A DNA stretch of 64,000 bases, taken from the IMG/VR virus record IMGVR_UViG_3300050821_001073, one strand, 5' to 3'. The notes below the pieces were generated by a model. That model made no database searches. It was not told the origin of the DNA and was given only the letters and a program-made list of their open reading frames with translations. The position numbers and the translations under genes were made by a program. Positions within the stretch are counted from its first letter, which is position 1; every line of letters begins with the position of its first letter. Shown in pieces: positions 14,542 to 51,659 of this stretch. This stretch comes from an uncultured virus (IMG/VR IMGVR_UViG_3300050821_001073) (Duplodnaviria; Heunggongvirae; Uroviricota; Caudoviricetes).

Positions 14542-14694
14542 TCAAGCGGAAACTGTGAAATTATCGCTGTAGCTGCTTACATACCAAACCGTACTGCTAT
14601 GGTGCCAACCGCAGGAGCGGCTCGTATGCTCCTCAAGTGAGTAGCTTTTCACATAAACAGAAGACCAGCTCCGTGGTTGCGCGATTAGAATCAC
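14542..14694 (-). CDS. Ser/aromatic-rich micro-peptide family member (50 aa)
   Basis: GTG start: MILIAQPRSWSSVYVKSYSLEEHTSRSCGWHHSSTVWYVSSYSDNFTVSA; GTGA-coupled. Confidence 0.65.
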   Translation of the reverse strand: MILIAQPRSWSSVYVKSYSLEEHTSRSCGWHHSSTVWYVSSYSDNFTVSA

Positions 14695-15137
14695 AGTCTT
14701 ATCGTCTGCCTCAGGCGTCCGTTCTTAGTTGTGCTGAAGTAGCAGCGTACTGGCCAGATCTGAAACGAGATGAAGTTCTCACCAACGGCCTGTATCTGTT
14801 CGTTCAGTTCCTTAGGCTCGAACGTCTCTTCAGTATCACCTAAGATGTAATGATGATACATTTTCTCATACAGCACCGGAGATACGCTTTTCTTGAAGAC
14901 GTACTCGATGTCCAAGAAGAACTCCAGAAGAGTAGGACGGACCTGTGAGCTGCATCCTGAACCGGCTCCCGTAACCCGACTGTTATCAACGACTTTGATA
15001 ACTGACTTAAGCTCCGTGCCGTGGTAAATGCCGACAGCGCCCTTTTCTTCGTCAGGATTAAGAATGCCCATGAAGGCATCTAGGTTCTTCTGCCGGTCGG
15101 TGTAGCCCTTATCTTCCGCGTAGATTATTCGTCCCAT
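14691..15137 (-). CDS. hypothetical protein
   Basis: GGAG RBS, 148 aa. Confidence 0.6.
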   Translation of the reverse strand: MGRIIYAEDKGYTDRQKNLDAFMGILNPDEEKGAVGIYHGTELKSVIKVVDNSRVTGAGSGCSSQVRPTLLEFFLDIEYVFKKSVSPVLYEKMYHHYILGDTEETFEPKELNEQIQAVGENFISFQIWPVRCYFSTTKNGRLRQTIRL

Positions 15138-15547
15138 GATGTCTCCTTCAAAATGTACTTAGGCATCAACTTCTTAATGTCCTTTACCTGCTTCTTATAG
15201 CTGTTTATACAGGCTTCACGGTCCTTCTTGATGCCATATGCCACCAGTTCCGCCATATCCCAAGCCTCTTCCTCACAATCCAGGACCAACTTAGCGTTCT
15301 TAGCCCGTGAATGCAGTTGTGTCGGGTCCAGGACCGCTCCTGGCAGAGACATCTCGGTAGCCACAACGTGTCCAAGCTCGTGCAATAGGCCTGTCAAGAG
15401 GTTCAGATTGCCATTCTCACCGACCTTTACCTGTTCTTTACAGATGAATATATCATAGCCGTTCTTCTTCATATTCACGCTGGACCCCTTCTCAGAAGCC
15501 CGCTTACTGGTGTCGATGGTCACGCGGATATTGAATTTTCGTATCAC
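15125..15547 (-). CDS. HExxH metallopeptidase-like protein
   Basis: LLHELGH ... CEEEAW (ImmA/IrrE-like spacing). Confidence 0.55.
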   Translation of the reverse strand: MIRKFNIRVTIDTSKRASEKGSSVNMKKNGYDIFICKEQVKVGENGNLNLLTGLLHELGHVVATEMSLPGAVLDPTQLHSRAKNAKLVLDCEEEAWDMAELVAYGIKKDREACINSYKKQVKDIKKLMPKYILKETSWDE

Positions 15548-15576
15548 AGTACCTCCTACTGCCTATTATACCAGTT

Positions 15577-15954
15577 TTACCCGCCATAGCGCATAACTTT
15601 TTTGTACATCGCTTTCCCTAATAAGCCGTACCGTTTCTCCCCCAGGACCGTAGTAGCAGGCGGCTCATCATGGAAAAGAGCTAAGGCTCGAAGTACTTCT
15701 GATAGGTTCTCCCTACAGGCGTTCTCTAAAATGCCGTAAGCCCGATTGATTCTCCAGTTAAGAATGCCACGTATCAGCCCTGTCTTATGGTTATGATCTG
15801 TGCCTTCAGCCTTACCACCTAATAGCAACTTGAACTGTGGGTGCCCCGCTTGGTACGCACGGATCTTGTCCCGTTCGGCCAATGTGATCCTATAGAGCTT
15901 CATCAGCCGATTATTCTTAGCCTTATCCTTAGTTGTCATCTTGGCTTTCTTCAT
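15577..15954 (-). CDS. recombination endonuclease VII-like protein
   Basis: YRITL...Q, DHNHKTG.IRG.L...N.A.G. Confidence 0.75.
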   Translation of the reverse strand: MKKAKMTTKDKAKNNRLMKLYRITLAERDKIRAYQAGHPQFKLLLGGKAEGTDHNHKTGLIRGILNWRINRAYGILENACRENLSEVLRALALFHDEPPATTVLGEKRYGLLGKAMYKKVMRYGG

Positions 15955-16481
15955 GATACAATCTCCAGTAGCTCCCCAAGATCCAGCATCCGATAGCGAC
16001 GTTTGCGGCCTATTATCTCATAGCCCCAGTTCCCAAAATGGCCATCGATATCCTTCTGTTTCAAGAATTCAGCTATCTCCTTCTCGTAAGTCTCTATCTC
16101 TTTGCAGCCTTCGTCTATCACTTCATACCGCTGCATTACAGTCACTCCGGTTTCAAAGTTATAGTAATGGATCTTAGGCAGAAACCGTCGAAGGCCGCTA
16201 TAATGATTGTCCGCGAGAATGGTGTGGTAGGCTAGGATCTCGTTCTTAGTGTGCTTGACACAATACTTCCAGTCCTTGCCACTTAGGATGTGGGAATCTC
16301 CATAGATGCAAGGAAACTTAACCACGATAGGCAGCTTGTCTACACTATAGGCTCTACGGAACGCACCTTCACCGACTAGCTTTAGCTCCGGTGCCCAGTC
16401 GCCTACGGAAGCTATATCATGCAGGTGTGCTACATGCTTCTCTTTCATGTGCCTAAGGAGCTGATTGAGTGTTAACTTCAT
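15951..16481 (-). CDS. protein-kinase-like fold protein
   Basis: GEGAFR.AY (Gly loop), VVKF (Lys), NE (helix C), DGHFGN (catalytic loop), DLG; start MKLTL is ATGA-coupled. Confidence 0.7.
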   Translation of the reverse strand: MKLTLNQLLRHMKEKHVAHLHDIASVGDWAPELKLVGEGAFRRAYSVDKLPIVVKFPCIYGDSHILSGKDWKYCVKHTKNEILAYHTILADNHYSGLRRFLPKIHYYNFETGVTVMQRYEVIDEGCKEIETYEKEIAEFLKQKDIDGHFGNWGYEIIGRKRRYRMLDLGELLEIVS

Positions 16482-16684
16482 AATGATGCTCCGCAATTTG
16501 AACCTGTCATAGTGCTTATACCAGAGACTCCCGATATAGAACAAGCCATTGTACTGCATCTACCTCTTAGCTGGTGTTCCCAGGGTGCCACGTAACCTCT
16601 ATATCTGCGATATTCAACTGTCTCATAAAAAGCCATAGGAGTTATCCAGTTTCTATCGAGTAAAGCGCCTATTCTGAAAATCAT
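16478..16684 (-). CDS. probable micro-peptide family member (68 aa)
   Basis: MIFRIG...CSISGVSGISTMTGSNCGASL; ATGA-coupled to both primase and kinase. Confidence 0.5.
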   Translation of the reverse strand: MIFRIGALLDRNWITPMAFYETVEYRRYRGYVAPWEHQLRGRCSTMACSISGVSGISTMTGSNCGASL

Positions 16685-19121: not shown

Positions 19122-19268
19122 CTATTTGTACCTGTTCCAGATCCATGCGTTGTAAGTGTGCAACACGCCTCGTCTATTAGACGACTTAGAGCTAAAGGAA
19201 TCGTTTGCACTTGAGAAATAACAGATTCCAGACAGACTTCGGTAAGGGTGCCAAGGTACGAATATCAT
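19122..19268 (-). CDS. micro-peptide family, PWH subtype (48 aa)
   Basis: MIFVPWHPYRSLSGICYFSSANDSFSSKSSNRRGVLHTYNAWIWNRYK. Confidence 0.7.
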   Translation of the reverse strand: MIFVPWHPYRSLSGICYFSSANDSFSSKSSNRRGVLHTYNAWIWNRYK

Positions 19269-19432
19269 AAATATCCCCTCCAGCCTCTATATAACCACAA
19301 TTCCGGTCTTCGACCGGCTGTCAATGAAGCAAAGCATTCATACGATTCGGAATTATAGCATAAAAACCCACCAACGCTAAGTTTACCGCTAGCTGATGCT
19401 CCAAATTTGCTGAATAGAGGTATGAATATCAT
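19265..19432 (-). CDS. micro-peptide family member (55 aa)
   Basis: MIFIPLFSKFGASASGKLSVGGFLCYNSESYECFASLTAGRRPELWLYRGWRGYL; AAGGAG RBS. Confidence 0.7.
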   Translation of the reverse strand: MIFIPLFSKFGASASGKLSVGGFLCYNSESYECFASLTAGRRPELWLYRGWRGYL

Positions 19433-19462: not shown

Positions 19463-19591
19463 TTAGTTCCAGAGCCACGATATGAAGGATTGGTTCATGC
19501 CCCGTGGCCGAGAGTATGTCTGAGTAGAGCTAGATGAGACGTAGCTACCTCTGTACATGGATCGGCGAAGATGCCAAGGTGTAAGTATCAT
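19463..19591 (-). CDS. micro-peptide family, PWH subtype (42 aa)
   Basis: MILTPWHLRRSMYRGSYVSSSSTQTYSRPRGMNQSFISWLWN. Confidence 0.7.
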   Translation of the reverse strand: MILTPWHLRRSMYRGSYVSSSSTQTYSRPRGMNQSFISWLWN

Positions 19592-19743
19592 ACTTGCTTC
19601 CAGTACCAGGGTAGGCTTGAGTTAATCGATCCTGGTATCCATGATGATCTTGAGTAATGGACAACAGAAATAGAGCAGTAGCAGTAGTCCCAACCCATCA
19701 TACCACTATAGCTTCGTTTTATGTGCCATGGTGCGAAGATCAT
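19588..19743 (-). CDS. micro-peptide family, PWH subtype (51 aa)
   Basis: MIFAPWHIKRSYSGMMGWDYCYCSISVVHYSRSSWIPGSINSSLPWYWKQV; ATGA-coupled to helicase. Confidence 0.7.
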   Translation of the reverse strand: MIFAPWHIKRSYSGMMGWDYCYCSISVVHYSRSSWIPGSINSSLPWYWKQV

Positions 19744-22054: not shown

Positions 22055-23080
22055 CTATTTCAACCACGTCAACCAAGAGTTCAGACCTTTGCTCGATACG
22101 TAGTTTAGCAGAATAGCGTTCAGGTTCCGAATGAACCCTCCCATCAAAGGGCTAACCGCTCTGTTCAACTTAGCAACGATATCAGTTGTGCTCGTGGGAG
22201 ACGCCTGGATAAGCGAACTCGTCCAGAAGACCTCAGGAGACACTACGATAGGCAACCCAGTTGCAACCATGTCCGCAGCAACGATGTTAAACGTCTCACT
22301 GAATGACACTTGCATTCCAATGTCCATTGTTGTCAATGTCTTAAGGAAAGTCTCGTGATTGGTCCAAGGATGCTGAATCAGTTGGTGTGGGGAGCCTTTG
22401 AACAACGCTATGAGATTCTTCAGGACGTTATCGCCACCTTCGATTCTCGTGGAGTTAATATGGAAGTTGAGCCGCAGGTTGCGCTGTTCAGCGAATTCCT
22501 GAGCCGCAACGGCCTGGATTAGCTGGTTCTTCAGCGGTCTAAGTGCTCCGAAGCAAGCTATGTTAACCGTAGTTCCAGGTGCGAAGCCACGACCAGAGCC
22601 TTTGACGGGGGTATATACGTTCGGGAGCAGAACGGTATTCGGTTCACGGTACGCCTTGAACAGCACGATATTGATGTCCTGGAGTGCCGTGGTAGAGTTG
22701 CTAGATACCTGAACGTTCTGGAACTCTGCGTAGCCCTTAATCCAATCCATAGCGATGCCTTCGGTAGCTAGGAACGGGATTTCAGAGTGCAAACGCACAG
22801 TCCATTTGACATTCGGGTGCAACTTAGTCAAAATGCTGAACTTACTAGGCACGACCCACAGGGCTTCGATGACCACATGAGTAGGCTTATGTAGCGTAAC
22901 GAGTTTGTCGATGCAGTTATTATCGATGGCAAAGACCACTTCAGAGGCGATGCCTTTATAGATTAGAGCGTTGCTGACCAGCGTAGCGGATTGGAATAAA
23001 CCGCTAGAGGGATACGCACTGTACGAGTAAGAACCGTAAGCTGCGTCGTTTTCTTTGAGGATAAAGAGGACTTTTGCCAT
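22055..23080 (-). CDS. GT-B (family 4-like) glycosyltransferase
   Basis: FGALRPLKN, SFSETFNIVAAD...G.P.V motifs; start set at MAKVLF. Confidence 0.8.
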   Translation of the reverse strand: MAKVLFILKENDAAYGSYSYSAYPSSGLFQSATLVSNALIYKGIASEVVFAIDNNCIDKLVTLHKPTHVVIEALWVVPSKFSILTKLHPNVKWTVRLHSEIPFLATEGIAMDWIKGYAEFQNVQVSSNSTTALQDINIVLFKAYREPNTVLLPNVYTPVKGSGRGFAPGTTVNIACFGALRPLKNQLIQAVAAQEFAEQRNLRLNFHINSTRIEGGDNVLKNLIALFKGSPHQLIQHPWTNHETFLKTLTTMDIGMQVSFSETFNIVAADMVATGLPIVVSPEVFWTSSLIQASPTSTTDIVAKLNRAVSPLMGGFIRNLNAILLNYVSSKGLNSWLTWLK

Positions 23081-23084
23081 TATT

Positions 23085-23339
23085 TTAGAATCCTTGCCTA
23101 ATTGCGTCTTGCTCGTACAAACCCATTGGATCTCCGACACCTGGAGAATGTATGGCGTAAACTTTACCAGTAGTAAACGCATTTCCATCTATGCGCGCTT
23201 CACCTGTGGTTACGATAGGAGCTGGAACGCCTACCTGAACTCGTCCAATTACTTTGCCACATCTGCCTTTGACTTCCCCTGCAAATACGATTTCTTCAAC
23301 GTAAAACTGGGCCAACTGTGATGCAGGTACAAATGACAT
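23085..23339 (-). CDS. hypothetical protein
   Basis: AAGGAG RBS before MSFVPAS. Confidence 0.55.
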   Translation of the reverse strand: MSFVPASQLAQFYVEEIVFAGEVKGRCGKVIGRVQVGVPAPIVTTGEARIDGNAFTTGKVYAIHSPGVGDPMGLYEQDAIRQGF

Positions 23340-23347: not shown

Positions 23348-23494
23348 TTATTTCCAGAGCCATGGGAGCATTGTGTTGACTCCATTGCTCATACTAGAGG
23401 ATAAAGACCTCCAACTATTGCTACTCGAATAGAATCTCTCAGTATAGACCCCGCCACTATTGCTTCTGAATATGTGCCAAGGGCAAAAGATCAC
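23348..23494 (-). CDS. micro-peptide family, PWH subtype (48 aa)
   Basis: GTG start: MIFCPWHIFRSNSGGVYTERFYSSSNSWRSLSSSMSNGVNTMLPWLWK; GTGA-coupled to HNH gene. Confidence 0.7.
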   Translation of the reverse strand: MIFCPWHIFRSNSGGVYTERFYSSSNSWRSLSSSMSNGVNTMLPWLWK

Positions 23495-23751
23495 GACGGT
23501 TTCCATCCTTTTATACGGTTGAACTTTGCCAGACCGTTTGCGCCTTCGCTGCCTACTTGTAGCGTTAGGTGCCCCGAATGAAGTCCGGAATGGCAGCACC
23601 CGCACAGGCTGATGAGGTTTTCCAAGGTGTCTGGACCGCCTTGGCTCTTGTAAATGATGTGATGCGGCTGCACTCCCCTATACCCGCAGTGCCTACATTT
23701 AAAAGCATCCCGCAGGAACACAGCCGATCTAGTTTTAGCGTCTAGGGCCAT
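23491..23751 (-). CDS. HNH endonuclease
   Basis: RD..KCRHCG...HHI..KSQGG....NL..LC..CH. Confidence 0.9.
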   Translation of the reverse strand: MALDAKTRSAVFLRDAFKCRHCGYRGVQPHHIIYKSQGGPDTLENLISLCGCCHSGLHSGHLTLQVGSEGANGLAKFNRIKGWKPS

Positions 23752-23835
23752 AATAGCCCGATAACGATGTAACAAGCTACAATGAACAATTCGGCTATGG
23801 CAACGACATAAAGTGCCGTAACTACTCTACTCATT

Positions 23836-25998: not shown

Positions 25999-26154
25999 TT
26001 ATGTGTCCTCTCCACATATACTAGAAGCATAGGCTCCTGCCCAACTCCGATTCCAGCCAGTATGATGGCTGCTCCGTGTAAGCTCCCACCTGCCGTAGTA
26101 TCTCCACATTGCCGCAGAGTGAGCGTCAAAAGCTGCTGTTTGAAACAGTATCAT
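25999..26154 (-). CDS. micro-peptide family member (51 aa)
   Basis: MILFQTAAFDAHSAAMWRYYGRWELTRSSHHTGWNRSWAGAYASSICGEDT. Confidence 0.7.
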   Translation of the reverse strand: MILFQTAAFDAHSAAMWRYYGRWELTRSSHHTGWNRSWAGAYASSICGEDT

Positions 26155-26155
26155 A

Positions 26156-27711: not shown

Positions 27712-27888
27712 CTAACTTCCATAATAACTCCTGTAAGCATGGCTACTGATGCTAATGTCCCAACCACTATGATGGCTAACATTTCCTATCAAAGTTTCGA
27801 CACAGCAGTTTTTACGTGTATAGAAGAACATAACAAGTCCTTGTGTGTTGACGCCTTTGTAGCGCGTTCTCATTGGTACAAATATCAT
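27712..27888 (-). CDS. micro-peptide family member (58 aa)
   Basis: MIFVPMRTRYKGVNTQGLVMFFYTRKNCCVETLIGNVSHHSGWDISISSHAYRSYYGS; AGGAG RBS and TTGACA-N17-TATAAT promoter upstream. Confidence 0.65.
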   Translation of the reverse strand: MIFVPMRTRYKGVNTQGLVMFFYTRKNCCVETLIGNVSHHSGWDISISSHAYRSYYGS

Positions 27889-27930: not shown

Positions 27931-28086
27931 TCAAAACCTATCACTCACAGATGCCCAAACCAAACTGCTCTTGGAAGGCAAGAAGATGACACTATCACCA
28001 GAGAAACTTCTGTAATAGTACTTACATTGACTGCTCCAGTTAGCAGAACTAAACGACCCGTATACTTGAACTGTCTTCAGGATCAT
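27931..28086 (-). CDS. micro-peptide family member (51 aa)
   Basis: MILKTVQVYGSFSSANWSSQCKYYYRSFSGDSVIFLPSKSSLVWASVSDRF. Confidence 0.7.
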   Translation of the reverse strand: MILKTVQVYGSFSSANWSSQCKYYYRSFSGDSVIFLPSKSSLVWASVSDRF

Positions 28087-28094: not shown

Positions 28095-28274
28095 TTAAAA
28101 GTAATCAGACATAGAGTTCCTATGCTGCCCGACTCCGGATGTAGATACTGCGCACATACCTACTCTAGATAAATTCAGCCAGTCGCTACGATGGTCACCT
28201 ACACTCTTACTTGACCATGAAGCAGCAAACCCGCATAGTGAACCTGATGAATTGTATACTATCCGCAATATCAT
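28095..28274 (-). CDS. micro-peptide family member (59 aa)
   Basis: MILRIVYNSSGSLCGFAASWSSKSVGDHRSDWLNLSRVGMCAVSTSGVGQHRNSMSDYF. Confidence 0.7.
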   Translation of the reverse strand: MILRIVYNSSGSLCGFAASWSSKSVGDHRSDWLNLSRVGMCAVSTSGVGQHRNSMSDYF

Positions 28275-28281: not shown

Positions 28282-28443
28282 CTACCAATCCGAGCTGAAT
28301 GAACCGGCTCTGAAATGCGAAATTGAACAATAGAATTCATTAGAGCGTGACCAACGTCGTCGCTGGTGACAACTATATATCGGTTCGCTTCTTAGAAGTC
28401 CCCAACTCCATGATCCTTTACCAGAATTTATATTAAGGATCAT
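28282..28443 (-). CDS. micro-peptide family member (53 aa)
   Basis: MILNINSGKGSWSWGLLRSEPIYSCHQRRRWSRSNEFYCSISHFRAGSFSSDW. Confidence 0.7.
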   Translation of the reverse strand: MILNINSGKGSWSWGLLRSEPIYSCHQRRRWSRSNEFYCSISHFRAGSFSSDW

Positions 28444-28641
28444 TTACCAAGCTCCTGACCAAGACGTTTGACAGAAATACTTAGCGCCAGTGAGTCGGTC
28501 TATGTGCGTTCCTGTGTGCGAGCACATATATCCAGCACACCTTGAGGCACCCGCAACCTGGACCTTCCAGGGCACCGCGCTTGTAAAGAATTGTCCGCTA
28601 GATGCCGACGCAGCAGGAGTAAGAAACGTCCTAAGAATCAT
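28444..28641 (-). CDS. micro-peptide family member (65 aa)
   Basis: MILRTFLTPAASASSGQFFTSAV...SRCAGYMCSHTG...YFCQTSWSGAW. Confidence 0.7.
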   Translation of the reverse strand: MILRTFLTPAASASSGQFFTSAVPWKVQVAGASRCAGYMCSHTGTHIDRLTGAKYFCQTSWSGAW

Positions 28642-43044: not shown

Positions 43045-44576
43045 ATATAGTATGGTGTAAGACAGGAGAATAAGACAATGATTGATCCAAGAGGCATCTT
43101 ACGCAACGTAGTTACAATCACCGAAACACCTAGTGCAACGCTGATCCTAATGGAATGCGGCCACACAGGATCGTTTGCACAGCACTTCCATTACGATGCT
43201 AAAGACCAGAGAAGATGCGTTCAGTGCTTGCCGAACTATGAAGAGATGCTGAAGACCAGACAGTAGCCGAATGTACTGTTAAGTTCGGCCAATAGCTGCC
43301 GATAATACATTCAACAAGGGAGAATAAGACAATGAAGAATATCAAGGTATTAGCGGCAGTTAACTTAGATGCACTAGAAGATGGTCAGATAGAAGTTGAA
43401 TCCAGTTTCGATACCATCGCGGAAGCAAAGAAGAGAGCTAAGTACTACCTAACCACCGAATACCAGAACGTTTGCGAAGCAGCTACCCGCTTAACCTATT
43501 CGCAGGTTGTTGTCAACGACATAGTTATGTATGATTACGTCAAGCCCTAACAAGATTAGAGTTCGAGTGAGCATGATGTGAGTGAATGACCCTGGCCTTG
43601 AGTAAGCCAGGGTTTCTTACGTGGCCGGACTCTCCTGCGTACCGCGTACGCTGACGTAAATCGGCCATATGTACTCTGGCAATTGGTATAGGAAAGAGAT
43701 AGGATAACAACAGTAAGAGGAGAGAAGGACATGAGCAAAGAACAGTTAGAGAACGAACTGGCAAGACTTAGAGAAGCAGTGTTAGACCTGCTAGACGTGA
43801 TTGACAACAAACCGGGTGATGACCTAGGCCAGTCTGCTATGGCACTCGCTCTAATCCAACTAAGGGAGCTAACCACGTAAGCATACCTAATTGCCTCCAA
43901 CCGGGCCAATAGCATCGCAACGCTTCGGACCTTAGTACAAAAATACTATTGACACGGACCTAGTTTTAGGATCTAGTTTTATCCTATCTCGCAGTCAAGA
44001 GGACATAAGTCTAAGGCAAGCCAAGGGCCAAACGATGGCAACGAACGTGCTACACACAGCAACTCAAGGGCCAAAGCACGGCCATAAACGTGCTAGGGTC
44101 CCCTTTTCGAATCCGAGGGGTGCCGGGGGGAGTCTCGGTGCATCTTTGTCGGAGGGTGGTGAGGCCGGGCGGAAAACATTAGATGCATTTAGGTACCATA
44201 TTACTATGTAGTGACTATACCCCTATAGAACCAATAAGATACGTATCAGTACGTAAACCCCACCTGCAAGATAAATCTATACGTTTATCTGACATGTCAA
44301 TTTGGAATGTCAAATCTGGCAGGATCTCGTCCCTTCTATTGGGTCCCCTATGACCTACATACGCGAGGGTATACGTATGTAAAATTTATACTATTGTGAG
44401 GGGTCTTGTACAGTTTAGGCGGATGTACATGTGGCATGAACGTAGGCAATTAATGAACAAGGCAGTTCTTTGGAAGGGATTTGTGTCTTCTGGAGGGTTC
44501 TTATAGGTAGGGCTATAGGAATATATGAAGTATCATAGGCAGGGTTTATAGTGGAGCTTGGTGACGGTACAGGGAG

Positions 44577-44729
44577 TTAGTACTTGGTACTAAAGCCAAG
44601 ACTGATAAGTGAGCGAGAAGACCGGCTACCTTCCCAGTAAGGACTACCTTCACTGAAGCACATCCCACTCGATAGCCCACAAAAGTTCTGACGGATGAAA
44701 TGATGTGTGAACCTATTTATTAGAATCAT
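44577..44729 (-). CDS. micro-peptide family member (50 aa)
   Basis: MILINRFTHHFIRQNFCGLSSGMCFSEGSPYWEGSRSSRSLISLGFSTKY; AAGGAG RBS. Confidence 0.75.
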   Translation of the reverse strand: MILINRFTHHFIRQNFCGLSSGMCFSEGSPYWEGSRSSRSLISLGFSTKY

Positions 44730-44758
44730 TAGAACTCCTTACAAGCCCTTACCTTTCT

Positions 44759-44917
44759 TTACCATCTATTAATATCTTGGTAGCTACGGTAATACCTAGA
44801 ACTGAACGCTACATGCATACCGGCGCATGCGCTTGTACACTCTGAGTCAATCCTTGAACTTAAAAATGTACTTGACGAAGAGGCAAGGAATCTGGAAAAC
44901 ATATTCATTAGAATCAT
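44759..44917 (-). CDS. micro-peptide family member (52 aa)
   Basis: MILMNMFSRFLASSSSTFLSSRIDSECTSACAGMHVAFSSRYYRSYQDINRW; GAGGAG RBS. Confidence 0.75.
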   Translation of the reverse strand: MILMNMFSRFLASSSSTFLSSRIDSECTSACAGMHVAFSSRYYRSYQDINRW

Positions 44918-44934
44918 TAGAGATCTCCTCAGCC

Positions 44935-45087
44935 TTAGTATCTGGTAAAGCCACGACTAACTATGCATCCGTCACTCCAAGATGTACTATAAATATGGGA
45001 AAGGTCACTTGCGGTCCATTCGCTAGATCTACTGAATTCCATATAATCCTGGCAGAGCCATCGAACGTACTGGTTTATTAGAATCAT
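44935..45087 (-). CDS. micro-peptide family member (50 aa)
   Basis: MILINQYVRWLCQDYMEFSRSSEWTASDLSHIYSTSWSDGCIVSRGFTRY; GGAGG RBS. Confidence 0.75.
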   Translation of the reverse strand: MILINQYVRWLCQDYMEFSRSSEWTASDLSHIYSTSWSDGCIVSRGFTRY

Positions 45088-45097
45088 AGTGCCTCCA

Positions 45098-45256
45098 TTA
45101 GAAACTCAGCCAGTTCGTACTTGTGTATAGACCTGCTGAAAAGCTAGCCATCCCGGTGGCATTGCGAAATCCTGCGGATTTACTCAAACCAGTAATATAG
45201 TACTTATAGGTTCTAGACTGCATGACAAAGTTAATCGTTATCGGAATCAGGTTCAT
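45098..45256 (-). CDS. micro-peptide family member (52 aa)
   Basis: MNLIPITINFVMQSRTYKYYITGLSKSAGFRNATGMASFSAGLYTSTNWLSF; AGGAG RBS. Confidence 0.7.
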   Translation of the reverse strand: MNLIPITINFVMQSRTYKYYITGLSKSAGFRNATGMASFSAGLYTSTNWLSF

Positions 45257-45269
45257 ATATAGTTAGCTC

Positions 45270-45455
45270 CTACTTAACAAACCCACGGCTGCTGAACATA
45301 TAGTTACTGGTGCTGTACATACCCACTTGCCAACCAAGACCTATGTAACTTCTATGATAATACCCACTGCAACTAAGATAGCAAGCCGGACCGCTAGCGT
45401 GTTCTCCACAAACGCTCACCGTGCCATAAGGACATTGTCTTCTAGTTAGAATCAT
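45270..45455 (-). CDS. micro-peptide family, CPYG subtype (61 aa)
   Basis: MILTRRQCPYG...YSTSNYMFSSRGFVK; TAATG-coupled. Confidence 0.75.
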   Translation of the reverse strand: MILTRRQCPYGTVSVCGEHASGPACYLSCSGYYHRSYIGLGWQVGMYSTSNYMFSSRGFVK

Positions 45456-45640
45456 TAGAACGTCCTTATAACGAATCCCACACTGCCCGAGAAGTCACTA
45501 CTATGACTAAACCATCCGCCGCTAAACCCGGCGTTACTCTTACGATTGCCACAGGAGTTACTCCTCCACCAGCCTTTTCCGCGTGAGTCGGTTGCGTGAC
45601 TATACTGCCCATAGGGGCACGGTGTCCATGACAGAATCAT
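45455..45640 (-). CDS. micro-peptide family, CPYG subtype (61 aa)
   Basis: MILSWTPCPYG...WFSHSSDFSGSVGFVIRTF; TGATG-coupled. Confidence 0.75.
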   Translation of the reverse strand: MILSWTPCPYGQYSHATDSRGKGWWRSNSCGNRKSNAGFSGGWFSHSSDFSGSVGFVIRTF

Positions 45641-45813
45641 CAAAAGCCTTCTTTGCCACTATTGCTCCTGAAATGGCCCAGTGTCCAACTGTTCTCGAAG
45701 CCACTACTAGCACCATTTAGATAGCCTAAATGTCGGCTAGTTAAGTCAAAATAATACTCCCAGGAGTCACGTGGTACTAGCCAATAAAATGAGCTGTATC
45801 TTAATAGTATCAC
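45640..45813 (-). CDS. micro-peptide family member (57 aa)
   Basis: GTG start: MILLRYSSFYWLVPRDSWEYYFDLTSRHLGYLNGASSGFENSWTLGHFRSNSGKEGF. Confidence 0.7.
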   Translation of the reverse strand: MILLRYSSFYWLVPRDSWEYYFDLTSRHLGYLNGASSGFENSWTLGHFRSNSGKEGF

Positions 45814-45986
45814 TTGACATCTCCTGAAATGCTAGAGTACATATTACTGCTTCTGCTCGCCGCCCAATCTACGTTCTTACTGAATATAAGGGTCGATGAC
45901 CAGCTTGACCGACAGGGACTGTAGGAATACAGACTCATGGCACTTCGGCTCCATCTACGGAAGTTCTGGAAGCGCATGACTATCAC
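45810..45986 (-). CDS. micro-peptide family member (58 aa)
   Basis: GTG start: MIVMRFQNFRRWSRSAMSLYSYSPCRSSWSSTLIFSKNVDWAASRSSNMYSSISGDVK. Confidence 0.7.
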   Translation of the reverse strand: MIVMRFQNFRRWSRSAMSLYSYSPCRSSWSSTLIFSKNVDWAASRSSNMYSSISGDVK

Positions 45987-46135
45987 ACGACACCACTCAT
46001 ACTCTCGCGGTAGTTGGAACTTCTGCTCATAATATGCTGGTGGCTGAAACTAAAGGCATATCCGCCATCTCCAGTAAGACTACAGACCTTAAAGCAACTC
46101 TTACTTGGCCATGCCGCAAATGTATATAGTATCAT
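45983..46135 (-). CDS. micro-peptide family member (50 aa)
   Basis: MILYTFAAWPSKSCFKVCSLTGDGGYAFSFSHQHIMSRSSNYRESMSGVV. Confidence 0.7.
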   Translation of the reverse strand: MILYTFAAWPSKSCFKVCSLTGDGGYAFSFSHQHIMSRSSNYRESMSGVV

Positions 46136-46145
46136 ATTTACTCTC

Positions 46146-46316
46146 TTACTCTCTACCGCAGTAACTCAGCCATTGATCTCCGTTATAGCCAGCGGTTTGG
46201 TACTGACTCATACTGCTCCATGCAAAGCTACTATAAGAATGTCTACATGACCGTCCCGTGTAATCCTCGCCGCAACTACTCGGATAATCGTGCCTCATCC
46301 AGTTCTTTAGTATCAT
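46146..46316 (-). CDS. micro-peptide family member (56 aa)
   Basis: MILKNWMRHDYPSSCGEDYTGRSCRHSYSSFAWSSMSQYQTAGYNGDQWLSYCGRE; GGAGG RBS. Confidence 0.75.
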   Translation of the reverse strand: MILKNWMRHDYPSSCGEDYTGRSCRHSYSSFAWSSMSQYQTAGYNGDQWLSYCGRE

Positions 46317-46444
46317 AGTCCTCCGCAATAGCTTAGTGGCCATGTGTTGCTGTAGCTCTTATTGAACGTACTATAGCTCAGCGCATAGCCATTGGAAAAG
46401 CAGTAAATGTAACTATCTCTGCGCATTTGGATGCTTAGGATCAT
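46313..46444 (-). CDS. micro-peptide family member (43 aa)
   Basis: MILSIQMRRDSYIYCFSNGYALSYSTFNKSYSNTWPLSYCGGL. Confidence 0.75.
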   Translation of the reverse strand: MILSIQMRRDSYIYCFSNGYALSYSTFNKSYSNTWPLSYCGGL

Positions 46445-46533
46445 AGACCTCACAACTATCTCCAATTCCGGCGAATCATCAGATACGTACCGTATACGCC
46501 GTTTTAGAGGCGTCCAGGAATTTAGACCTGGGA

Positions 46534-46680
46534 TTATCGGTGCCCACTACTGTAACTAAACAGATTGGGATAGTTCACAGATTTATAACTTCCACAAGTG
46601 CTCCATCTTGTCCAATTGCTAAGACCCCATCTAATATTTGGATCACGAATCCACATCCGAAAAGGAGCTACTAGTATCAT
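46534..46680 (-). CDS. micro-peptide family member (48 aa)
   Basis: MILVAPFRMWIRDPNIRWGLSNWTRWSTCGSYKSVNYPNLFSYSSGHR. Confidence 0.75.
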   Translation of the reverse strand: MILVAPFRMWIRDPNIRWGLSNWTRWSTCGSYKSVNYPNLFSYSSGHR

Positions 46681-46853
46681 CTTCCACCGCATTCGCTAAA
46701 GTAATAGGCCGTATGACAGACCGATCTTGCGAAACGACCGCTGTCATGAGAGTCTCTAATATAACTAGTAAACTCTGAATTAGTGCGACTCCACATAAAC
46801 CATGACGGTCTGCGATCAATGTACCACTGTCGGTATGGGATGTTTAAGATCAT
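46677..46853 (-). CDS. micro-peptide family member (58 aa)
   Basis: MILNIPYRQWYIDRRPSWFMWSRTNSEFTSYIRDSHDSGRFARSVCHTAYYFSECGGR. Confidence 0.75.
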   Translation of the reverse strand: MILNIPYRQWYIDRRPSWFMWSRTNSEFTSYIRDSHDSGRFARSVCHTAYYFSECGGR

Positions 46854-46999
46854 CTTCCACTACTCTTACTAAAAAATTCAGTACTACAAGAGCGGGAATA
46901 CATAATACTGCTAGTAAACTGATGGCTACTACGGCTCATCCAATCACCCATTAACTCCATAGATGCCCAATAGTATCGATATGCAGCGGTTAGGATCAC
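46850..46999 (-). CDS. micro-peptide family member (49 aa)
   Basis: GTG start: MILTAAYRYYWASMELMGDWMSRSSHQFTSSIMYSRSCSTEFFSKSSGR. Confidence 0.75.
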   Translation of the reverse strand: MILTAAYRYYWASMELMGDWMSRSSHQFTSSIMYSRSCSTEFFSKSSGR

Positions 47000-47157
47000 A
47001 GGTATCTGACCAGTGTGCAGCATGCCACAATAAGCAACGCAAATCCTATTATACCGTAAACAATCAAGGCCGCAGGCACAGCCGTAGAGACATCAATCGC
47101 GTCCCATCCGAGTACCAATAGTGTTAGCGCCAAACCCGACAATGCAAATAGAAACAT
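46996..47157 (-). CDS. 53-aa 2-TM membrane protein heading the peptide array operon
   Basis: MFLFALSGLALTLLVLGWDAIDVSTAVPAALIVYGIIGFALLIVACCTLVRYL; GAGGAG RBS. Confidence 0.7.
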   Translation of the reverse strand: MFLFALSGLALTLLVLGWDAIDVSTAVPAALIVYGIIGFALLIVACCTLVRYL

Positions 47158-47179
47158 AGTTATCTCCTCAACTATCTAT

Positions 47180-47208
47180 AGATTACCAGATCACAGGCCG
47201 ATTGTCAA
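47180..47208 (-). promoter_or_regulatory. sigma70 promoter driving the main peptide array
   Basis: TTGACA-N17-TAATCT with extended -10 TG. Confidence 0.7.
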
Positions 47209-47214
47209 GCGGAA

Positions 47215-47340
47215 TCACCAGGGGGCACTATAACGTACACCAAAAGATTTTGACATAGGAAAATCTCCGCACCAGCTTTTAACAAGTCTTGGGTAAGAAC
47301 TTCCCAGATCCCATATACGAAAGGCAGTCACTAGATTCAT
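47215..47340 (-). CDS. micro-peptide family member (41 aa)
   Basis: MNLVTAFRIWDLGSSYPRLVKSWCGDFPMSKSFGVRYSAPW; GGAGG RBS, TAATG coupling. Confidence 0.7.
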   Translation of the reverse strand: MNLVTAFRIWDLGSSYPRLVKSWCGDFPMSKSFGVRYSAPW

Positions 47341-47498
47341 TACCAACCTCCACAAGTCGAGAACGCAAAATAGGAACGAGAATACTTCTCATGAGTGCTG
47401 TCACCCCTTCCATTAGAGCATGACCCGAAACTGCACAGCTCCCCGCTCGTGGAGTATTTGAGCAACCTCGCCCTAGTCCAGAAAAATGCTACTATCAT
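47340..47498 (-). CDS. micro-peptide family member (52 aa)
   Basis: MIVAFFWTRARLLKYSTSGELCSFGSCSNGRGDSTHEKYSRSYFAFSTCGGW; ATGA-coupled to DNA polymerase. Confidence 0.75.
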   Translation of the reverse strand: MIVAFFWTRARLLKYSTSGELCSFGSCSNGRGDSTHEKYSRSYFAFSTCGGW

Positions 47499-50020
47499 TT
47501 GCTCCAAACTTTCGATACGTTGTACTCTGAAGTCATCTCTACTCGCTTCATCTTAACAGCAGCGGCTCTCTTAAAGCAATCCTGAATATGCTTTGCAACT
47601 TCTTCCGCGTATTGCGTAGGAACGTGGATCACTAGTTCATCATGTATCATGCTCCTAAACTGTGCCTTATACTTAGGTAACACATGGAAAAGAAACGGTT
47701 TACCATCTTTATCGAATCCTGAACCTACGGCTATCTTGATAATTGAGACGTTACCCGATTGAATCTCATGATTCTTACCCTGGCGCTCAATGCTTCCTAG
47801 AAGTCCTCGGTATTCCTTCTGGATCTGACCATCCGAAGGCTGTACCTTTAGCAGTTCTATCTTCTCGTCCTTCTTTGGCTTCCTTTCGTTCTCTTCTATG
47901 AACTTACTAATGGCCGATTCCTGAACAGCTTCCGTCGCATACTTCTTGGCTGTCTCCCAGTTCGGATTAGGAAAGATCCTACGGCGTCCGAAGAAGTCTC
48001 TGGCTTCTTTCTTGATCTTCGCACGCTTGCCTGCGTCTTCTAGGTAGTTCCAGATGTTAGGAAATGCCCTGCGGTGCCTCTCCATGATGTCTTTACACTC
48101 GTTTACAGTCTTACCCGTATCCACGGCCAGCTTATTGGGACCGCCACCGTTCACTAACAGGAAGGTACAGGACTTGGTGCCGTTGCGTAGGTCTTCATGC
48201 TGCGGACAACCCTTGCCGCACTTGCCTTTCTTGATTTCACCATTAGGCTGTAGTGCGTAGTACCCGCAGGCGTCCGTGGCCAACATAGGCCATTCTTGGG
48301 CGTATAGAATAGCAGTTGAGATAGAGTGTAGATCCTCATTCCTTTGGAACGCTTCTATCCAGGTTTTGTCATTAGCCAATTCTGCCAGGATGCGAAGTTC
48401 AGCGCCTGACATGTCACACGTAATCAATACGTAATCCTCTGCCTTAGTCTGACAAAGTTGCCTGCAAGTCAAACATCTCGGACCTTCGTTCATAACCGTG
48501 TCAAAAGTCGTCTCAGATTCACAGCATATGGAAATCTGTATATCAGGATTCGGACCATCCGCTTCAAAACACTCCCGAATCTCTTTACCCTTGGGAATGT
48601 TCTGAGCATTCGGCTTGCTGCTGCTCGTTCGGCCTGTTTCGGCTTCGTACTGATTGAATTCACTGTGGAGTCTACCGTCGCCTGGGTGCAGGAAACCTTC
48701 TTCCTTCTTCGGTCCAGTCATCCAGGTAGTAGCCCACGTCATGCCATAGGTGTCCACTTCCTTATTAATCGAACGGAAGTCTCGTAACAACTTGATAACA
48801 GGGATCTTAGCGAAATCTGCCAAGGAGTCATCGTTCGTGTCTTTCAGCTTGCTCAGTCCTGACATTTGTTTCAATGCGGTCAACAACTGATCCGTAGATG
48901 AATAGTTAATTAGTGCCTGACCTTCACATGTCGGCAGTAGCTTACGTAAGAATGTCAGTCGCTTGCTAATAACCGATTGAATCCCTTTTATGTTCTCTTT
49001 CTCTTCCTTACGGGCTGTCTCTAGCATGTCTAATGCTTTACGTAACAAGGCTTTACGTTCAGGATCTTGTTGTCTACGTACCTCGCCCTTTAACTTAACC
49101 TCATTAGCTGGAACAATCATAAGCGCCTTCCACTGCGCATGAAGTTCATCGGATTGTTCCTTAGTTACAATGTCTTTCGTTTTATCTCCCACAATTGGAA
49201 TGAAATATTTGTCCATTGCGGCGATCACTTCTACCAATTCTGCTTTCTTAGCATCCGTTCTGGCAGTCCACTTGGCAACGTTAAGGTTCTGGCCATGAAC
49301 GTGCATATCCACGAACGCTCCGATAGCATCATTTTCCAACTGGATGACTTCTAACAGTCCGTCCTTCTGCGCTAGGCGCAATTGTGCAGTGCGTATGGCA
49401 AAAGGTAGGCGCGTATCCAACGCTGCGTACTGTATCTGTTCAGGAGTCAATGGCGTGTGAAGATCGAACGATGTCTGGAGTTCCTTATCGATCTGGACCT
49501 CGAAGTACCTCTGCATAAGCGTTTCCATGGAGAACTCTGAGTACTTCTTTAGACTTATCTCTCCTGCGCGTATGCAGCGTTCTGCTAACATACCATCGTA
49601 CAGTCCGTAGATCCTTCTGCCGAAGTTCCAGTACATGTGAGTAGCTTCAAATGAGAGGTTGATTCCTAGCTTAATGTGTTGATTAGAAAGGAGTACCGAG
49701 TCACAAGTTTCCAGCACCAGCTTGAGTCCCTGTGTCATGTTTTTCCCATAATGACCCTGACTGTTAGCTAATACTTCCCCGTTACCATCCACGAACGCAA
49801 GTAAGTCCACGACATACTGCTCATCCTTGTTTCCGAATTGAAGGGTACGCACTCCGCGCCAGTAGAAGTCGTTGGTTACATTCGTTTCAATATCGAAGCC
49901 CACGTCCGTAACTCGGTCAAGAAAACTTGCCATCTGACCAAGACTCTTCCCATCCACAACCAGTGTTACATTGTTTGGTGGGTTCAATATTAGCTGTTTA
50001 AACTCTTGGCCTTCAATCAT
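47495..50020 (-). CDS. polA: family A DNA polymerase with 3'-5' exonuclease
   Basis: FDIET, YAALD, TGRTSS..PNAQNIP, DMSGAELR (motif A), R...K...F (motif B), IHDE (motif C). Confidence 0.95.
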   Translation of the reverse strand: MIEGQEFKQLILNPPNNVTLVVDGKSLGQMASFLDRVTDVGFDIETNVTNDFYWRGVRTLQFGNKDEQYVVDLLAFVDGNGEVLANSQGHYGKNMTQGLKLVLETCDSVLLSNQHIKLGINLSFEATHMYWNFGRRIYGLYDGMLAERCIRAGEISLKKYSEFSMETLMQRYFEVQIDKELQTSFDLHTPLTPEQIQYAALDTRLPFAIRTAQLRLAQKDGLLEVIQLENDAIGAFVDMHVHGQNLNVAKWTARTDAKKAELVEVIAAMDKYFIPIVGDKTKDIVTKEQSDELHAQWKALMIVPANEVKLKGEVRRQQDPERKALLRKALDMLETARKEEKENIKGIQSVISKRLTFLRKLLPTCEGQALINYSSTDQLLTALKQMSGLSKLKDTNDDSLADFAKIPVIKLLRDFRSINKEVDTYGMTWATTWMTGPKKEEGFLHPGDGRLHSEFNQYEAETGRTSSSKPNAQNIPKGKEIRECFEADGPNPDIQISICCESETTFDTVMNEGPRCLTCRQLCQTKAEDYVLITCDMSGAELRILAELANDKTWIEAFQRNEDLHSISTAILYAQEWPMLATDACGYYALQPNGEIKKGKCGKGCPQHEDLRNGTKSCTFLLVNGGGPNKLAVDTGKTVNECKDIMERHRRAFPNIWNYLEDAGKRAKIKKEARDFFGRRRIFPNPNWETAKKYATEAVQESAISKFIEENERKPKKDEKIELLKVQPSDGQIQKEYRGLLGSIERQGKNHEIQSGNVSIIKIAVGSGFDKDGKPFLFHVLPKYKAQFRSMIHDELVIHVPTQYAEEVAKHIQDCFKRAAAVKMKRVEMTSEYNVSKVWSK

Positions 50021-50167
50021 TTACCAACCTCCACAAGCACTATAATAGTTTGAATCACTCTTACTAAAAAACCAATAACTAGTATAGCAACTTCGGTAAT
50101 AGCCTCTATTATGGGAGTTGCAAGGTGTTGATGGCATTCTTCGTATCTGTCTTGTAGTAAGGTTCAT
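50021..50167 (-). CDS. micro-peptide family member (48 aa), leaderless, first cistron of the pol operon
   Basis: MNLTTRQIRRMPSTPCNSHNRGYYRSCYTSYWFFSKSDSNYYSACGGW; TTGACA-N17-TAGGCT 6 nt upstream of ATG. Confidence 0.75.
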   Translation of the reverse strand: MNLTTRQIRRMPSTPCNSHNRGYYRSCYTSYWFFSKSDSNYYSACGGW

Positions 50168-50229
50168 ATGCAGAGCCTATCTCATCATATACTGTGTGTC
50201 AAGTATAATACTAACATTAGAACATTAGA

Positions 50230-51026
50230 GTCTGTAAAGAACCGTCAGGGCAATAGGGTACCGTTTCTCTCTGGATATACAGTCTCTCAGTGGTTGCCCT
50301 TTTCTTAGGTCTTATCCCCTGCTCTGTATTCAGATCGACACACCATGTACTTATTGCACGATGATGGTAGAAGCGGTAATGCCTTATCGTTAGATTGTAA
50401 ACTAGCCTATAGATCTGTTATGTCCTAGGCCGATTTACGTGGATTTCAACGTCCCAGTACAAGTTTAGCTAAGCAGTGTGTGTTCCAAAGCTTTTGCACG
50501 CTACGAGATGTTTCTTGGAGTTCAACTCCGCACCAAACGGGTAACACTTGTCTGGCTCTCTATTGCGATTGTGTAACTTATACCACTGGCCCCGGCTTTC
50601 ACGCGGCCATCGCTTGCTGAAGGCGTCTCTTTTGGATCGGTTCCCACGGATTCTAATTATCCGCTCTTACTACAGTCACGCTACTAGGTTCCCGGCTTTT
50701 ACACCGTTCCAGTTTGAGTTTCCGATTTATTCTTTTTCCAGCACTTTTGAAGAAGCCCGAAGGCTCGTTCAACCCGTGTGGCGGAACTGTGTTCAGTTGG
50801 TTGCACAAGCATTACCCGTATGCAGCAACTGCTTTTGGTTTGGAGACATGACCACCTAAGGTCAACGTACTCAGTACGTGTAAAGGGTTCGCTCTCCAGC
50901 GTGTGATGACTTGTCTTAGTCAGTATTTATCCCGACCCAAGCCTTAAAGCCCTTGTACATTTAGCCCTTTCGGGCTCCCCTGTATTACTGGATCTGACCA
51001 GCTACAGAGGCTTTTTCTTGACTACA
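50230..51026 (-). ncRNA. candidate large structured non-coding RNA (~750-800 nt)
   Basis: own TTGACA-N17-TATTCT promoter (51032-51060); no credible ORF; GAAA and UUCG tetraloop hairpins; 5'/3' long-range complementarity. Confidence 0.6.
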
Positions 51027-51083
51027 CTTCTAGAATAACATGAGTTTTTGTGAATGTCAAGTGTTTTCTGAAAATAATTTATC

Positions 51084-51112
51084 TTGACAGACCTTATTAA
51101 CTTTGTTAATAT
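51084..51112 (+). promoter_or_regulatory. sigma70 promoter of the plus-strand peptide array
   Basis: TTGACA-N17-TAATAT, 6 nt before ATG. Confidence 0.7.
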
Positions 51113-51118
51113 AAGGAT

Positions 51119-51262
51119 ATGGTCATATCAGTAATAGGAATTAGTCGCAGTTCTCTATGGAAAAGATCCGTAAATGAAGGATGGTACTGTAGCCAAAGTA
51201 CCTATTATGCAGGGTCAGCTTGCGGTAGAGCCCATTACAAAAGTTTCTGTGGAGGGCTGTGA
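51119..51262 (+). CDS. micro-peptide family member (47 aa)
   Basis: MVISVIGISRSSLWKRSVNEGWYCSQSTYYAGSACGRAHYKSFCGGL. Confidence 0.75.
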   Translation: MVISVIGISRSSLWKRSVNEGWYCSQSTYYAGSACGRAHYKSFCGGL

Positions 51263-51346
51263 TGGTCATTCTTCAGCCTTCAACTTACGTCGGGCTGTGT
51301 GTCAGTGTCCCATAACTGCAATTCCAGTCGATGTGGGAGGCTATGA
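51262..51346 (+). pseudogene. frameshifted, shortened micro-peptide unit
   Basis: starts MVIL but stops after 17 aa; the family-type end ...SHNCNSSRCGRL lies in another frame. Confidence 0.55.
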
Positions 51347-51492
51347 TGGTTCTAATGGCTCGCATTTGGAAGACATTACAGTATAACCCCTATAGACCTT
51401 CCAGGCCGTTTAGTTCATGGTCAGAAGGTTGGGTTAGCAGCGCAAGTTCGACGTATAGGCAGGCCGACTTCAGTAACTGTGGAGGTTGGTAA
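51343..51492 (+). CDS. micro-peptide family member (49 aa)
   Basis: MMVLMARIWKTLQYNPYRPSRPFSSWSEGWVSSASSTYRQADFSNCGGW. Confidence 0.75.
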   Translation: MMVLMARIWKTLQYNPYRPSRPFSSWSEGWVSSASSTYRQADFSNCGGW

Positions 51493-51659
51493 TGGTCCTG
51501 GCGAGAACCAACCCATACGCTGATTCCTATAGCGACCGTTATATAGGCTCGTTTTCGGGCAACGGCAGCAGCGGACACGGAACCATGGCGAGTTATATTC
51601 AAGGTTGGAGAATATCATATAGTCATAGTGAGAATTTAAGCTTCTCTTCAATGATTTAA
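51492..51659 (+). CDS. micro-peptide family member (55 aa)
   Basis: MVLARTNPYADSYSDRYIGSFSGNGSSGHGTMASYIQGWRISYSHSENLSFSSMI. Confidence 0.7.
   Translation: MVLARTNPYADSYSDRYIGSFSGNGSSGHGTMASYIQGWRISYSHSENLSFSSMI

Follow-up and report, generated by a model that had tools for sequence, protein, structure and literature searches.

A 64,000-nucleotide (nt) stretch of an uncultured Caudoviricetes virus (IMG/VR record IMGVR_UViG_3300050821_001073), analyzed here over its whole length and referred to as the window, carries 33 intact micro open reading frames (micro-ORFs, or units) of 41-68 amino acids (aa) in nine loci; together they take up 5,304 nt, or 8.3% of the window. With a probability of roughly 0.55, we consider these units to be a lineage-specific family of functional, disordered early micro-proteins that are selected for composition and are gained and lost by recombination at conserved junctions. 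The predicted peptides begin with MIL (19 units), MIF (6), MIV (2), MNL (3), MVL (2) or MVI (1); one further unit is truncated (ATG ATT CGC ... TAG, 7 codons, at about 46456-46479 on the minus strand). The 33 intact ORFs and one broken unit in nine loci described by the original prediction, a reading of the sequence that preceded this analysis, were re-derived from ORF listings with refined starts. Its tally of start motifs was reproduced, except that the start it had read as MMVL belongs to an MVL unit read one Met earlier, and its statement that every unit lies on the locally coding strand holds for 33 of 33. The units are, by position in the window:

14542..14694, minus strand: micro-ORF of 50 aa, GTG start, MIL
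16478..16684, minus strand: micro-ORF of 68 aa, MIF; joined by ATGA to the stop of primase-helicase, and overlapping the start of the kinase-like gene with its own stop
19122..19268, minus strand: micro-ORF of 48 aa, MIF, PWH subfamily
19265..19432, minus strand: micro-ORF of 55 aa, MIF, PWH subfamily, distant member
19463..19591, minus strand: micro-ORF of 42 aa, MIL, PWH subfamily
19588..19743, minus strand: micro-ORF of 51 aa, MIF, PWH subfamily; directly upstream of the helicase gene
23348..23494, minus strand: micro-ORF of 48 aa, GTG start, MIF, PWH subfamily; adjoins the HNH gene
25999..26154, minus strand: micro-ORF of 51 aa, MIL; directly after the exonuclease gene
27712..27888, minus strand: micro-ORF of 58 aa, MIF
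27931..28086, minus strand: micro-ORF of 51 aa, MIL
28095..28274, minus strand: micro-ORF of 59 aa, MIL
28282..28443, minus strand: micro-ORF of 53 aa, MIL
28444..28641, minus strand: micro-ORF of 65 aa, MIL; overlaps the start of the DUF2201 gene
44577..44729, minus strand: micro-ORF of 50 aa, MIL; last of the main array, a called gene in a public collection
44759..44917, minus strand: micro-ORF of 52 aa, MIL
44935..45087, minus strand: micro-ORF of 50 aa, MIL
45098..45256, minus strand: micro-ORF of 52 aa, MNL
45270..45455, minus strand: micro-ORF of 61 aa, MIL
45455..45640, minus strand: micro-ORF of 61 aa, MIL
45640..45813, minus strand: micro-ORF of 57 aa, GTG start, MIL
45810..45986, minus strand: micro-ORF of 58 aa, GTG start, MIV
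45983..46135, minus strand: micro-ORF of 50 aa, MIL
46146..46316, minus strand: micro-ORF of 56 aa, MIL
46313..46444, minus strand: micro-ORF of 43 aa, MIL; 26-nt junction repeats (family D1) on both sides
46456..46479, minus strand: truncated unit, ATG ATT ..., 7 codons, then TAG
46534..46680, minus strand: micro-ORF of 48 aa, MIL
46677..46853, minus strand: micro-ORF of 58 aa, MIL
46850..46999, minus strand: micro-ORF of 49 aa, GTG start, MIL; GTGA overlap with the membrane ORF stop
47215..47340, minus strand: micro-ORF of 41 aa, MNL
47340..47498, minus strand: micro-ORF of 52 aa, MIV; ATGA overlap with the stop of the DNA polymerase (PolA) gene
50021..50167, minus strand: micro-ORF of 48 aa, MNL; Shine-Dalgarno (SD) sequence of PolA within the last codons
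51119..51262, plus strand: micro-ORF of 47 aa, MVI; begins 7 nt after a promoter-like -10 box
51346..51492, plus strand: micro-ORF of 48 aa, MVL; 53 aa if read from the first ATG at 51331
51492..51659, plus strand: micro-ORF of 55 aa, MVL

The open frames and the starts of these units both exceed chance expectation, and with this the enrichment over shuffled sequence on which the original prediction depended is present. In 30 units (1,590 codons) the unit frame contains no stop, against 78-150 stops in each of the five other frames, and 33 of 34 units are open and have start signals. Within the main array (44546-46995), 16 ORFs of at least 40 aa tile 88% of the coding strand; among 1,000 second-order Markov shuffles, ORFs of this size tiled 34% on average and 69% at most, and none of the shuffles matched the observed value. 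At other loci the observed tiling was matched by 1, 0 and 13 of 1,000 shuffles. Of 32 units, 23 begin with M-I-[LF], compared with 1 of 68 ordinary genes (Fisher p = 2e-14); as a background rate, ATH-YTN follows 50 of the 3,995 ATG and GTG triplets in the window.

The composition that the units had been claimed to share is likewise evident, since Ser, Trp and Tyr stand above the expectation derived from the units' own base composition (2.0-fold, 2.5-fold and 1.8-fold, respectively), and Leu and Val (0.52-fold each), Glu (0.56-fold) and Lys (0.61-fold) stand below it. In absolute terms the units consist of 18.8% Ser, 7.6% Arg, 7.3% Tyr and 4.8% Trp, with Lys, Glu, Asp, Leu, Val and Ala scarce; the spaced serine motif S-x-S is found 85 times versus 57.5 expected (z = 4.4). 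The peptides are basic, with a mean net charge of +2.9 and a charge of +2 or more in 27 of 32 units.

An alignment of 32 units shows a loose common layout that begins with MIL, continues through a dozen aromatic and Arg-rich residues, often including Trp, into a Ser-rich body with a near-invariant 'RS', and closes with [YF]-x-S-x-[CS]-G-G-[WRL]; conservation attains 90% only at M1 and in one Ser column. The bodies, described earlier as mutually unalignable, are mostly so; the exceptions are this weak layout and a five-member subfamily (units 19122, 19265, 19463, 19588 and 23348), named PWH after its pattern MIF.PWH..RS...W[LI]W, whose members share 30-46% identity and find each other by blastp (E = 8e-9 and 7e-8) without detectable DNA similarity. 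Among the four core members, nonsynonymous difference (pN 0.44-0.49 over six pairs) remains below synonymous difference (pS 0.62-0.83), a sign of purifying selection (dN, the nonsynonymous rate, below dS, the synonymous rate) that was found in the PWH subfamily only, and both AGY and TCN codons encode Ser in the conserved columns. Nothing else in the data points as clearly to selection acting on the peptide itself.

Persistence and turnover of units were observed in a second genome. A scan of metagenome contigs by PolA alignment yielded 80 loci, of which only the 4,698-nt contig L007 is close to the window; the two PolA sequences are 78% identical in amino acids and 74% in nucleotides (dS 2.05, dN 0.17). 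As in the window, two unit-like ORFs separate pol from a conserved small membrane ORF in L007, and upstream of pol L007 has four where the window has one. All six L007 units are open and very rich in Ser, Trp, Gly and Cys, ending in GG[WY] or CW, and their DNA is unalignable with that of the window units. Positional counterparts in the two genomes give pN values of 0.46-0.56 with saturated pS, and because of this saturation the alignments themselves are unreliable. Since an unconstrained frame of 50 codons usually gains stops at a dS of about 2, the frame and the composition appear to have been maintained, and the sequence has not. The hypervariability and variable copy number originally proposed are in this way borne out, and the stops that would have spoken against the proposal are absent from the six L007 units.

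Whole-unit gain or loss is also hinted at within the main array, where a contig of depth 3.5 from a second soil run (X2) skips positions 46318-46446 (joint 46317>46447, with three letters between, and 51 nt from the joint). The skipped stretch corresponds precisely to unit 46313-46444, which has a 26-nt D1 repeat on either side; this fits recombination between junctions, as a hint only, because it rests on a single contig of low depth. The same run contains near-identical fragments (100% over 46200-46378 and 49900-50098), fragments of a relative further removed, whose PolA pieces are about 85% identical, and further joints inside unit regions (45974>46043 and 51553>51705).

Beyond L007, the search for relatives was negative within its scope. 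The nearest named phages by PolA tblastn are the Tunturiibacter phages Tunturi_3 (43% identity) and Tunturi_4 (39%), and the gaps of the whole Tunturi_3 genome contain no unit-like ORFs. Outside L007, co-oriented unit-like sets were found at none of the 79 PolA-relative, 23 helicase and 35 primase loci screened, with candidates examined at 17 of the PolA-relative loci and gene maps drawn around pol at 7; this screen used the composition profile of the present phage, so that a family of different composition would be missed. A 42,680-nt contig found both in IMG/VR and in metagenome data is identical to window positions 43800-60020 and is therefore not an independent relative.

The ends of the units are dominated by translation signals. 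The recurrent C-terminal C-G-G-W, which had been put forward as a peptide feature, corresponds to TGTGGAGGTTGGTAA, the SD sequence and spacer of the following cistron read in frame. At the other end, [AG]TGA forms the start of 30 of 33 units and a TAATG overlap is present in two more; as an [AG]TGA start contains TGA in the +1 frame, much of the 'M-I' represents a stop/start overlap signal. The 'constant leader' is thus reduced to three residues that coincide with a nucleotide-level signal, and it counts further against such a leader that M-I begins only two of the six L007 units. Signals of this kind had been attributed to nearly all units, as a ribosome-binding site, an overlap or a promoter; the claim is sustained for the overlaps, and a strict SD 4-mer (GGAG, GAGG or AGGA) precedes only 19 of 33 units. 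With stop/start overlaps or close spacing, and with the SD inside the upstream cistron, the units are arranged as translationally coupled cistrons. Unit 16478-16684 has ATGA overlaps at both ends, between the primase-helicase and the kinase-like gene, and the equivalent genes in Tunturi_3 abut directly. Protein-level selection, which the original prediction derived from varied codons, is supported by the open frames, the composition and the PWH subfamily (pN below pS); the leader and the C-terminal motif are largely nucleotide-level features.

Several known routes to such arrays were considered and rejected. DNA matches between units amount to eight pairs of 14-18 nt, five of them at unit ends, and repeat analysis of the array ruled out a tandem DNA repeat. 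Protein family scans covered 51 larger ORFs of the window with PHROGs and 35 with Pfam, and ORFs below about 100 aa only in part; within this scope no modifying enzyme, no reverse transcriptase and no other diversifying machinery was found. A diversity-generating retroelement is contradicted by the lack of a reverse transcriptase among the scanned ORFs and by the unit DNA matches, which do not exceed 18 nt and lie mostly at ends. An integron-type cassette array was rejected as no integrase was seen among these ORFs and no inverted repeats were seen at junctions in 44400-47600, where a single 14-nt palindrome occurs.

On this basis, the units would be real, translated micro-genes for basic, probably disordered peptides of about 50 aa in which Ser, Tyr, Trp, Gly and Arg abound. 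They would sit within early and replication operons, coupled to their neighbors through the [AG]TGA or TAATG overlaps, with the SD of the next cistron placed in the last codons of each unit. Selection would keep the frame open and the composition constant, and in the PWH subfamily also N- and C-terminal Trp-containing motifs, leaving the bulk of the sequence free. Recombination between junctions of about 15-26 nt (SD, spacer and ATGATHCTA) would add and remove units, giving rise to tandem arrays and to differences in copy number. Translation, early expression and an action on the host are predicted from sequence, with sigma-70-like consensus matches lying immediately ahead of the 50-52 kb units: the peptides would be made early and would probably act on the host by composition-driven binding of low specificity, with nucleic acids or host sensor or defense proteins as possible targets. 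The 'diversifying effector library' originally envisaged survives in that the units are hypervariable, open and apparently under selection; its leader and its C-terminal motif do not, no diversifying machinery was found among the larger ORFs scanned, and the proposed effector, decoy and self-assembly roles received no support from the analysis. A bolder form, in our estimate rather improbable, would make the units a recombination-shuffled repertoire of disordered, composition-selected peptides of about 50 aa, rich in Ser, aromatic residues and Arg, that is produced at the start of infection, is diversified by gain and loss of units at the SD/ATGA junction, and acts collectively as multivalent binders or decoys, whether by forming condensates, by coating nucleic acids or by soaking up a host kinase or defense sensor.

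A substantial body of results weighs against reading the units as functional micro-genes. A codon model trained on 31 long genes placed phase 0 best in 20 of 20 ordinary small ORFs versus 4 of 32 units, whose score of -6.09 bits per codon is near uniform. Synonymous codon usage of the units correlates weakly with that of the phage genes (r = 0.20) and more closely with the genes read off-frame at +2 (r = 0.49); intergenic-type k-mers (TAGT, TATA, TTTT), which contain TAG or are rich in T, are enriched in the units, and off-frame ORFs within real genes attain similar composition scores. Base periodicity weakly resembles that of a coding frame shifted by +1. These atypical nucleotide statistics count against a conventional gene family. 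Homologs and structure provide no counterweight: a profile of 32 units against 5.8 billion word-indexed clusters gave 110 word-sharing candidates, none at E of 0.01 or below, and no credible homolog of the PWH subfamily was found among 1.84 billion representatives, where the only match of its profile, a 731-aa repeat protein with nine weak stretches, was judged spurious. Pfam and PHROGs returned three chance-level matches for the units (E = 0.038 to 0.052); AlphaFold2 on the PWH alignment gave a mean predicted local distance difference test score (pLDDT) of 51.8, no secondary structure and no confident fold; in the ESM Atlas, the protein language-model 'recognition' value lies within the range of shuffled sequences, and the best feature score, 0.89 with this low recognition, gave no lead. 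The family has been seen in two related genomes only, and gene records were found for three of ten units looked up by exact sequence in the public collection, each as a singleton. Standard gene finders miss most of the units, and homology tools are blind to all of them.

These results lend some weight to an alternative that we nevertheless consider unlikely: the units may be translated junction cassettes, or a proto-gene 'nursery', spread by SD/ATGA recombination, whose peptides are irrelevant and whose frames stay translatable since an insert that is not translated would uncouple translation or exert polar effects on the essential genes downstream. Such cassettes would be expected to look non-genic in codon model, synonymous usage and k-mers, to lack folds and homologs, to have translation signals as their constant ends, to come and go as whole units at junction repeats, and to evolve near neutrality in bulk sequence, as the positional counterparts do (pN 0.46-0.56). 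Translatability alone, however, does not predict a composition bias, and both genomes retain the excess of Ser, Trp and Tyr and the deficit of Leu, Val, Glu and Lys. The amino-acid-level constraint in the PWH subfamily, including the switches between Ser codon families, also speaks against it; units within the window have diverged from each other as far as units between the genomes, which indicates that they are old; and a phage with a fixed capsid would be expected to shed 5.3 kb of useless DNA. Functional, composition-selected micro-proteins remain preferred, at the probability given above.

It seems quite improbable that the peptides serve as substrates or decoys of a modifying enzyme, be it a kinase-like protein with a dual-specificity phosphatase, a GT4-like glycosyltransferase, or a maturation system like those of ribosomally synthesized and post-translationally modified peptides (RiPPs). 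Ser and Tyr are highly abundant in the peptides, and the window encodes a kinase-like protein (homologous to a Tunturi_3 'kinase', E = 1e-10) with one unit directly upstream of its gene, as well as a DSPc phosphatase, a JAB domain protein and a weak match to GT4 proteins of conflict systems; a relevance of these four proteins to Ser/Tyr-rich peptides is possible. Yet Tunturi_3 has the kinase and the phosphatase without unit-like ORFs, so these enzymes do not need the units. RiPP precursors carry an enzyme-recognized leader or follower that is typically well over 10 residues long. RiPP precursors were rejected because the conserved leader of the units spans no more than three residues and no maturation enzyme was found; among the scanned larger ORFs there was no radical SAM, YcaO, lanthipeptide synthetase or peptidase-transporter family. 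Slightly less likely still, and in our view very improbable, is the idea that the units are non-coding RNA or DNA elements with incidental open frames, or true genes in another frame or code. The atypical codon usage and the +1-like periodicity would agree with it, as would a few alternative-frame ORFs of more ordinary composition and two units that fold at z of -3 or below. Over all units, however, the folding z, computed from 25 mononucleotide shuffles per unit, averages -0.33 (n = 32) versus +0.04 in gene controls (n = 19), and with neither tRNA nor Rfam matches the units were rejected as structured RNAs. All three kinds of stop are frequent in each of the five other frames, so that no single stop reassignment opens them; the alternative-frame ORFs have no family matches (no PHROG below E = 0.08), and the open frames with start signals recur in L007.

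In comparison with known systems, the composition-selected micro-proteins proposed here come closest to small early ORFan clusters and copy-number 'accordions', which are known kinds; a family of 33 members united by composition and translation-signal junctions would be an unusual variant. In lytic phages, small early 'host-takeover' genes form clusters, for instance the host-takeover module of SPO1 and the early small-ORF regions of T4; these too consist of many short, co-oriented, packed cistrons with their own ribosome-binding sites, situated near replication genes and early promoters (in the window, promoter-like sites), and their ORFans are lineage-specific and fast-evolving. The window units differ in sharing one composition (Ser, Tyr, Trp, Arg, Gly) and common junctions, apparently as a single expanded family of 33 members, and in their abnormal codon statistics. 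Anti-defense loci of the anti-CRISPR type and 'gene accordion' expansions are similarly small, fast-diverging, tandem and variable in content and copy number between close relatives, whereas the units match no such family in Pfam or PHROGs and no helix-turn-helix regulator was seen nearby; unlike acidic anti-defense mimics, the peptides are basic and have no predicted fold. Proteins of viruses that arose de novo or by overprinting resemble the units in their odd composition, lack of homologs, predicted disorder and off-frame-like codon periodicity; the units, in contrast, overlap no live gene, the other frames being closed, and form a multi-copy family. Finally, the low-complexity aromatic-rich kinked segments (LARKS) and prion-like Ser/Gly/Tyr segments of eukaryotic phase-separating proteins share with the units, as read here, selection for composition, aromatic residues spaced by Ser and Gly, the presence of Arg and the lack of a stable fold; the window peptides differ in standing alone at about 50 aa, in containing Trp and Cys, and in being poor in Gln and Asn.

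If the units are functional, this phage spends about 8% of a 64-kb stretch on 33 tiny proteins whose composition and readability are conserved and whose sequence is free. They would then offer a tractable example, found in nature, of selection on microproteins at the level of composition. They would also show how recombination at the ribosome-binding site and start junction can enlarge or shrink a gene family in a simple manner without breaking operon translation, and would give phages related to those of soil Acidobacteriota a further candidate class of early factors directed at the host. Should the cassette or proto-gene explanation be true instead, the locus would still be a useful natural example of new ORFs kept open inside operons. 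No published description of such arrays was found at the level of listings and abstracts.

The window is phage DNA, with a replication module on the minus strand that includes a UvsX-like recombinase, endonuclease VII, primase-helicase, helicase, exonuclease and family-A DNA polymerase (47495-50020), and with packaging and head genes on the plus strand from about 55 kb; ARAGORN detected no tRNA or tmRNA in the window, and Rfam gave no match at gathering score. The genes for the enzymes discussed above lie at 15951-16481 on the minus strand (kinase-like, homologous to Tunturi_3 gp59), 53922-54407 on the plus strand (dual-specificity phosphatase domain, DSPc), 52449-52910 on the plus strand (prokaryotic JAB domain) and 22055-23188 on the minus strand (weak 'GT4 in conflict systems' match). 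Two endonuclease genes were observed, a GIY-YIG-type homing endonuclease (58098-58742, plus strand) between the terminase and portal genes and a small HNH endonuclease (23491-23775, minus strand) adjoining unit 23348-23494. The replication region also pairs a DUF2201 protein with metallopeptidase-like and VWA-like domains (28631-29797, minus strand) with an AAA_5, MoxR-like ATPase (30666-31667, minus strand). Two features adjoin the units of the main array and of the 51-kb locus:

46996..47157, minus strand: ordinary small membrane-protein ORF of 53 aa, two-helix-like; inside the array but not a unit, a positional anchor conserved in L007 (30% aa identity)
51032..51112, both strands: divergent sigma-70-like promoters with TG-extended -10 boxes, TTGACA-17-TATTCT on the minus and TTGACA-17-TAATAT on the plus strand; consensus matches only

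Upstream of the membrane ORF, a TTGACA box with a TGnTAATCT-type -10 box (47180-47208) is conserved in the window and L007. Of the divergent pair, the leftward promoter would drive a candidate RNA, a unit and the pol operon, and the rightward one three units. Only 7 nt separate the end of the rightward promoter-like site from the ATG of unit 51119, so that its transcript could be leaderless; a terminator-like hairpin at 51872-51899 (plus strand) would close a transcript of about 780 nt holding the three units. A candidate structured non-coding RNA of about 650 nt lies on the minus strand at 50360-51025, with conservation reaching to about 50258; it is downstream of the TTGACA-17-TATTCT site and occupies the interval that separates the divergent promoters from the unit preceding pol. 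Rfam gave no match to it even with the threshold relaxed to E of 1, and nhmmer over the fetched relative loci, self copies excluded, recovered it in L007 only. There it is 83% identical (92-96% in the core), compared with 74% for the adjacent PolA gene, and the mismatches show no codon (3-nt) periodicity. The candidate contains GNRA and UUCG hairpins, and its minimum free energy has a z-score of -3.69; between the two sequences, 15 of 176 predicted pairs have substitutions at both positions that preserve pairing, and no pair is lost.

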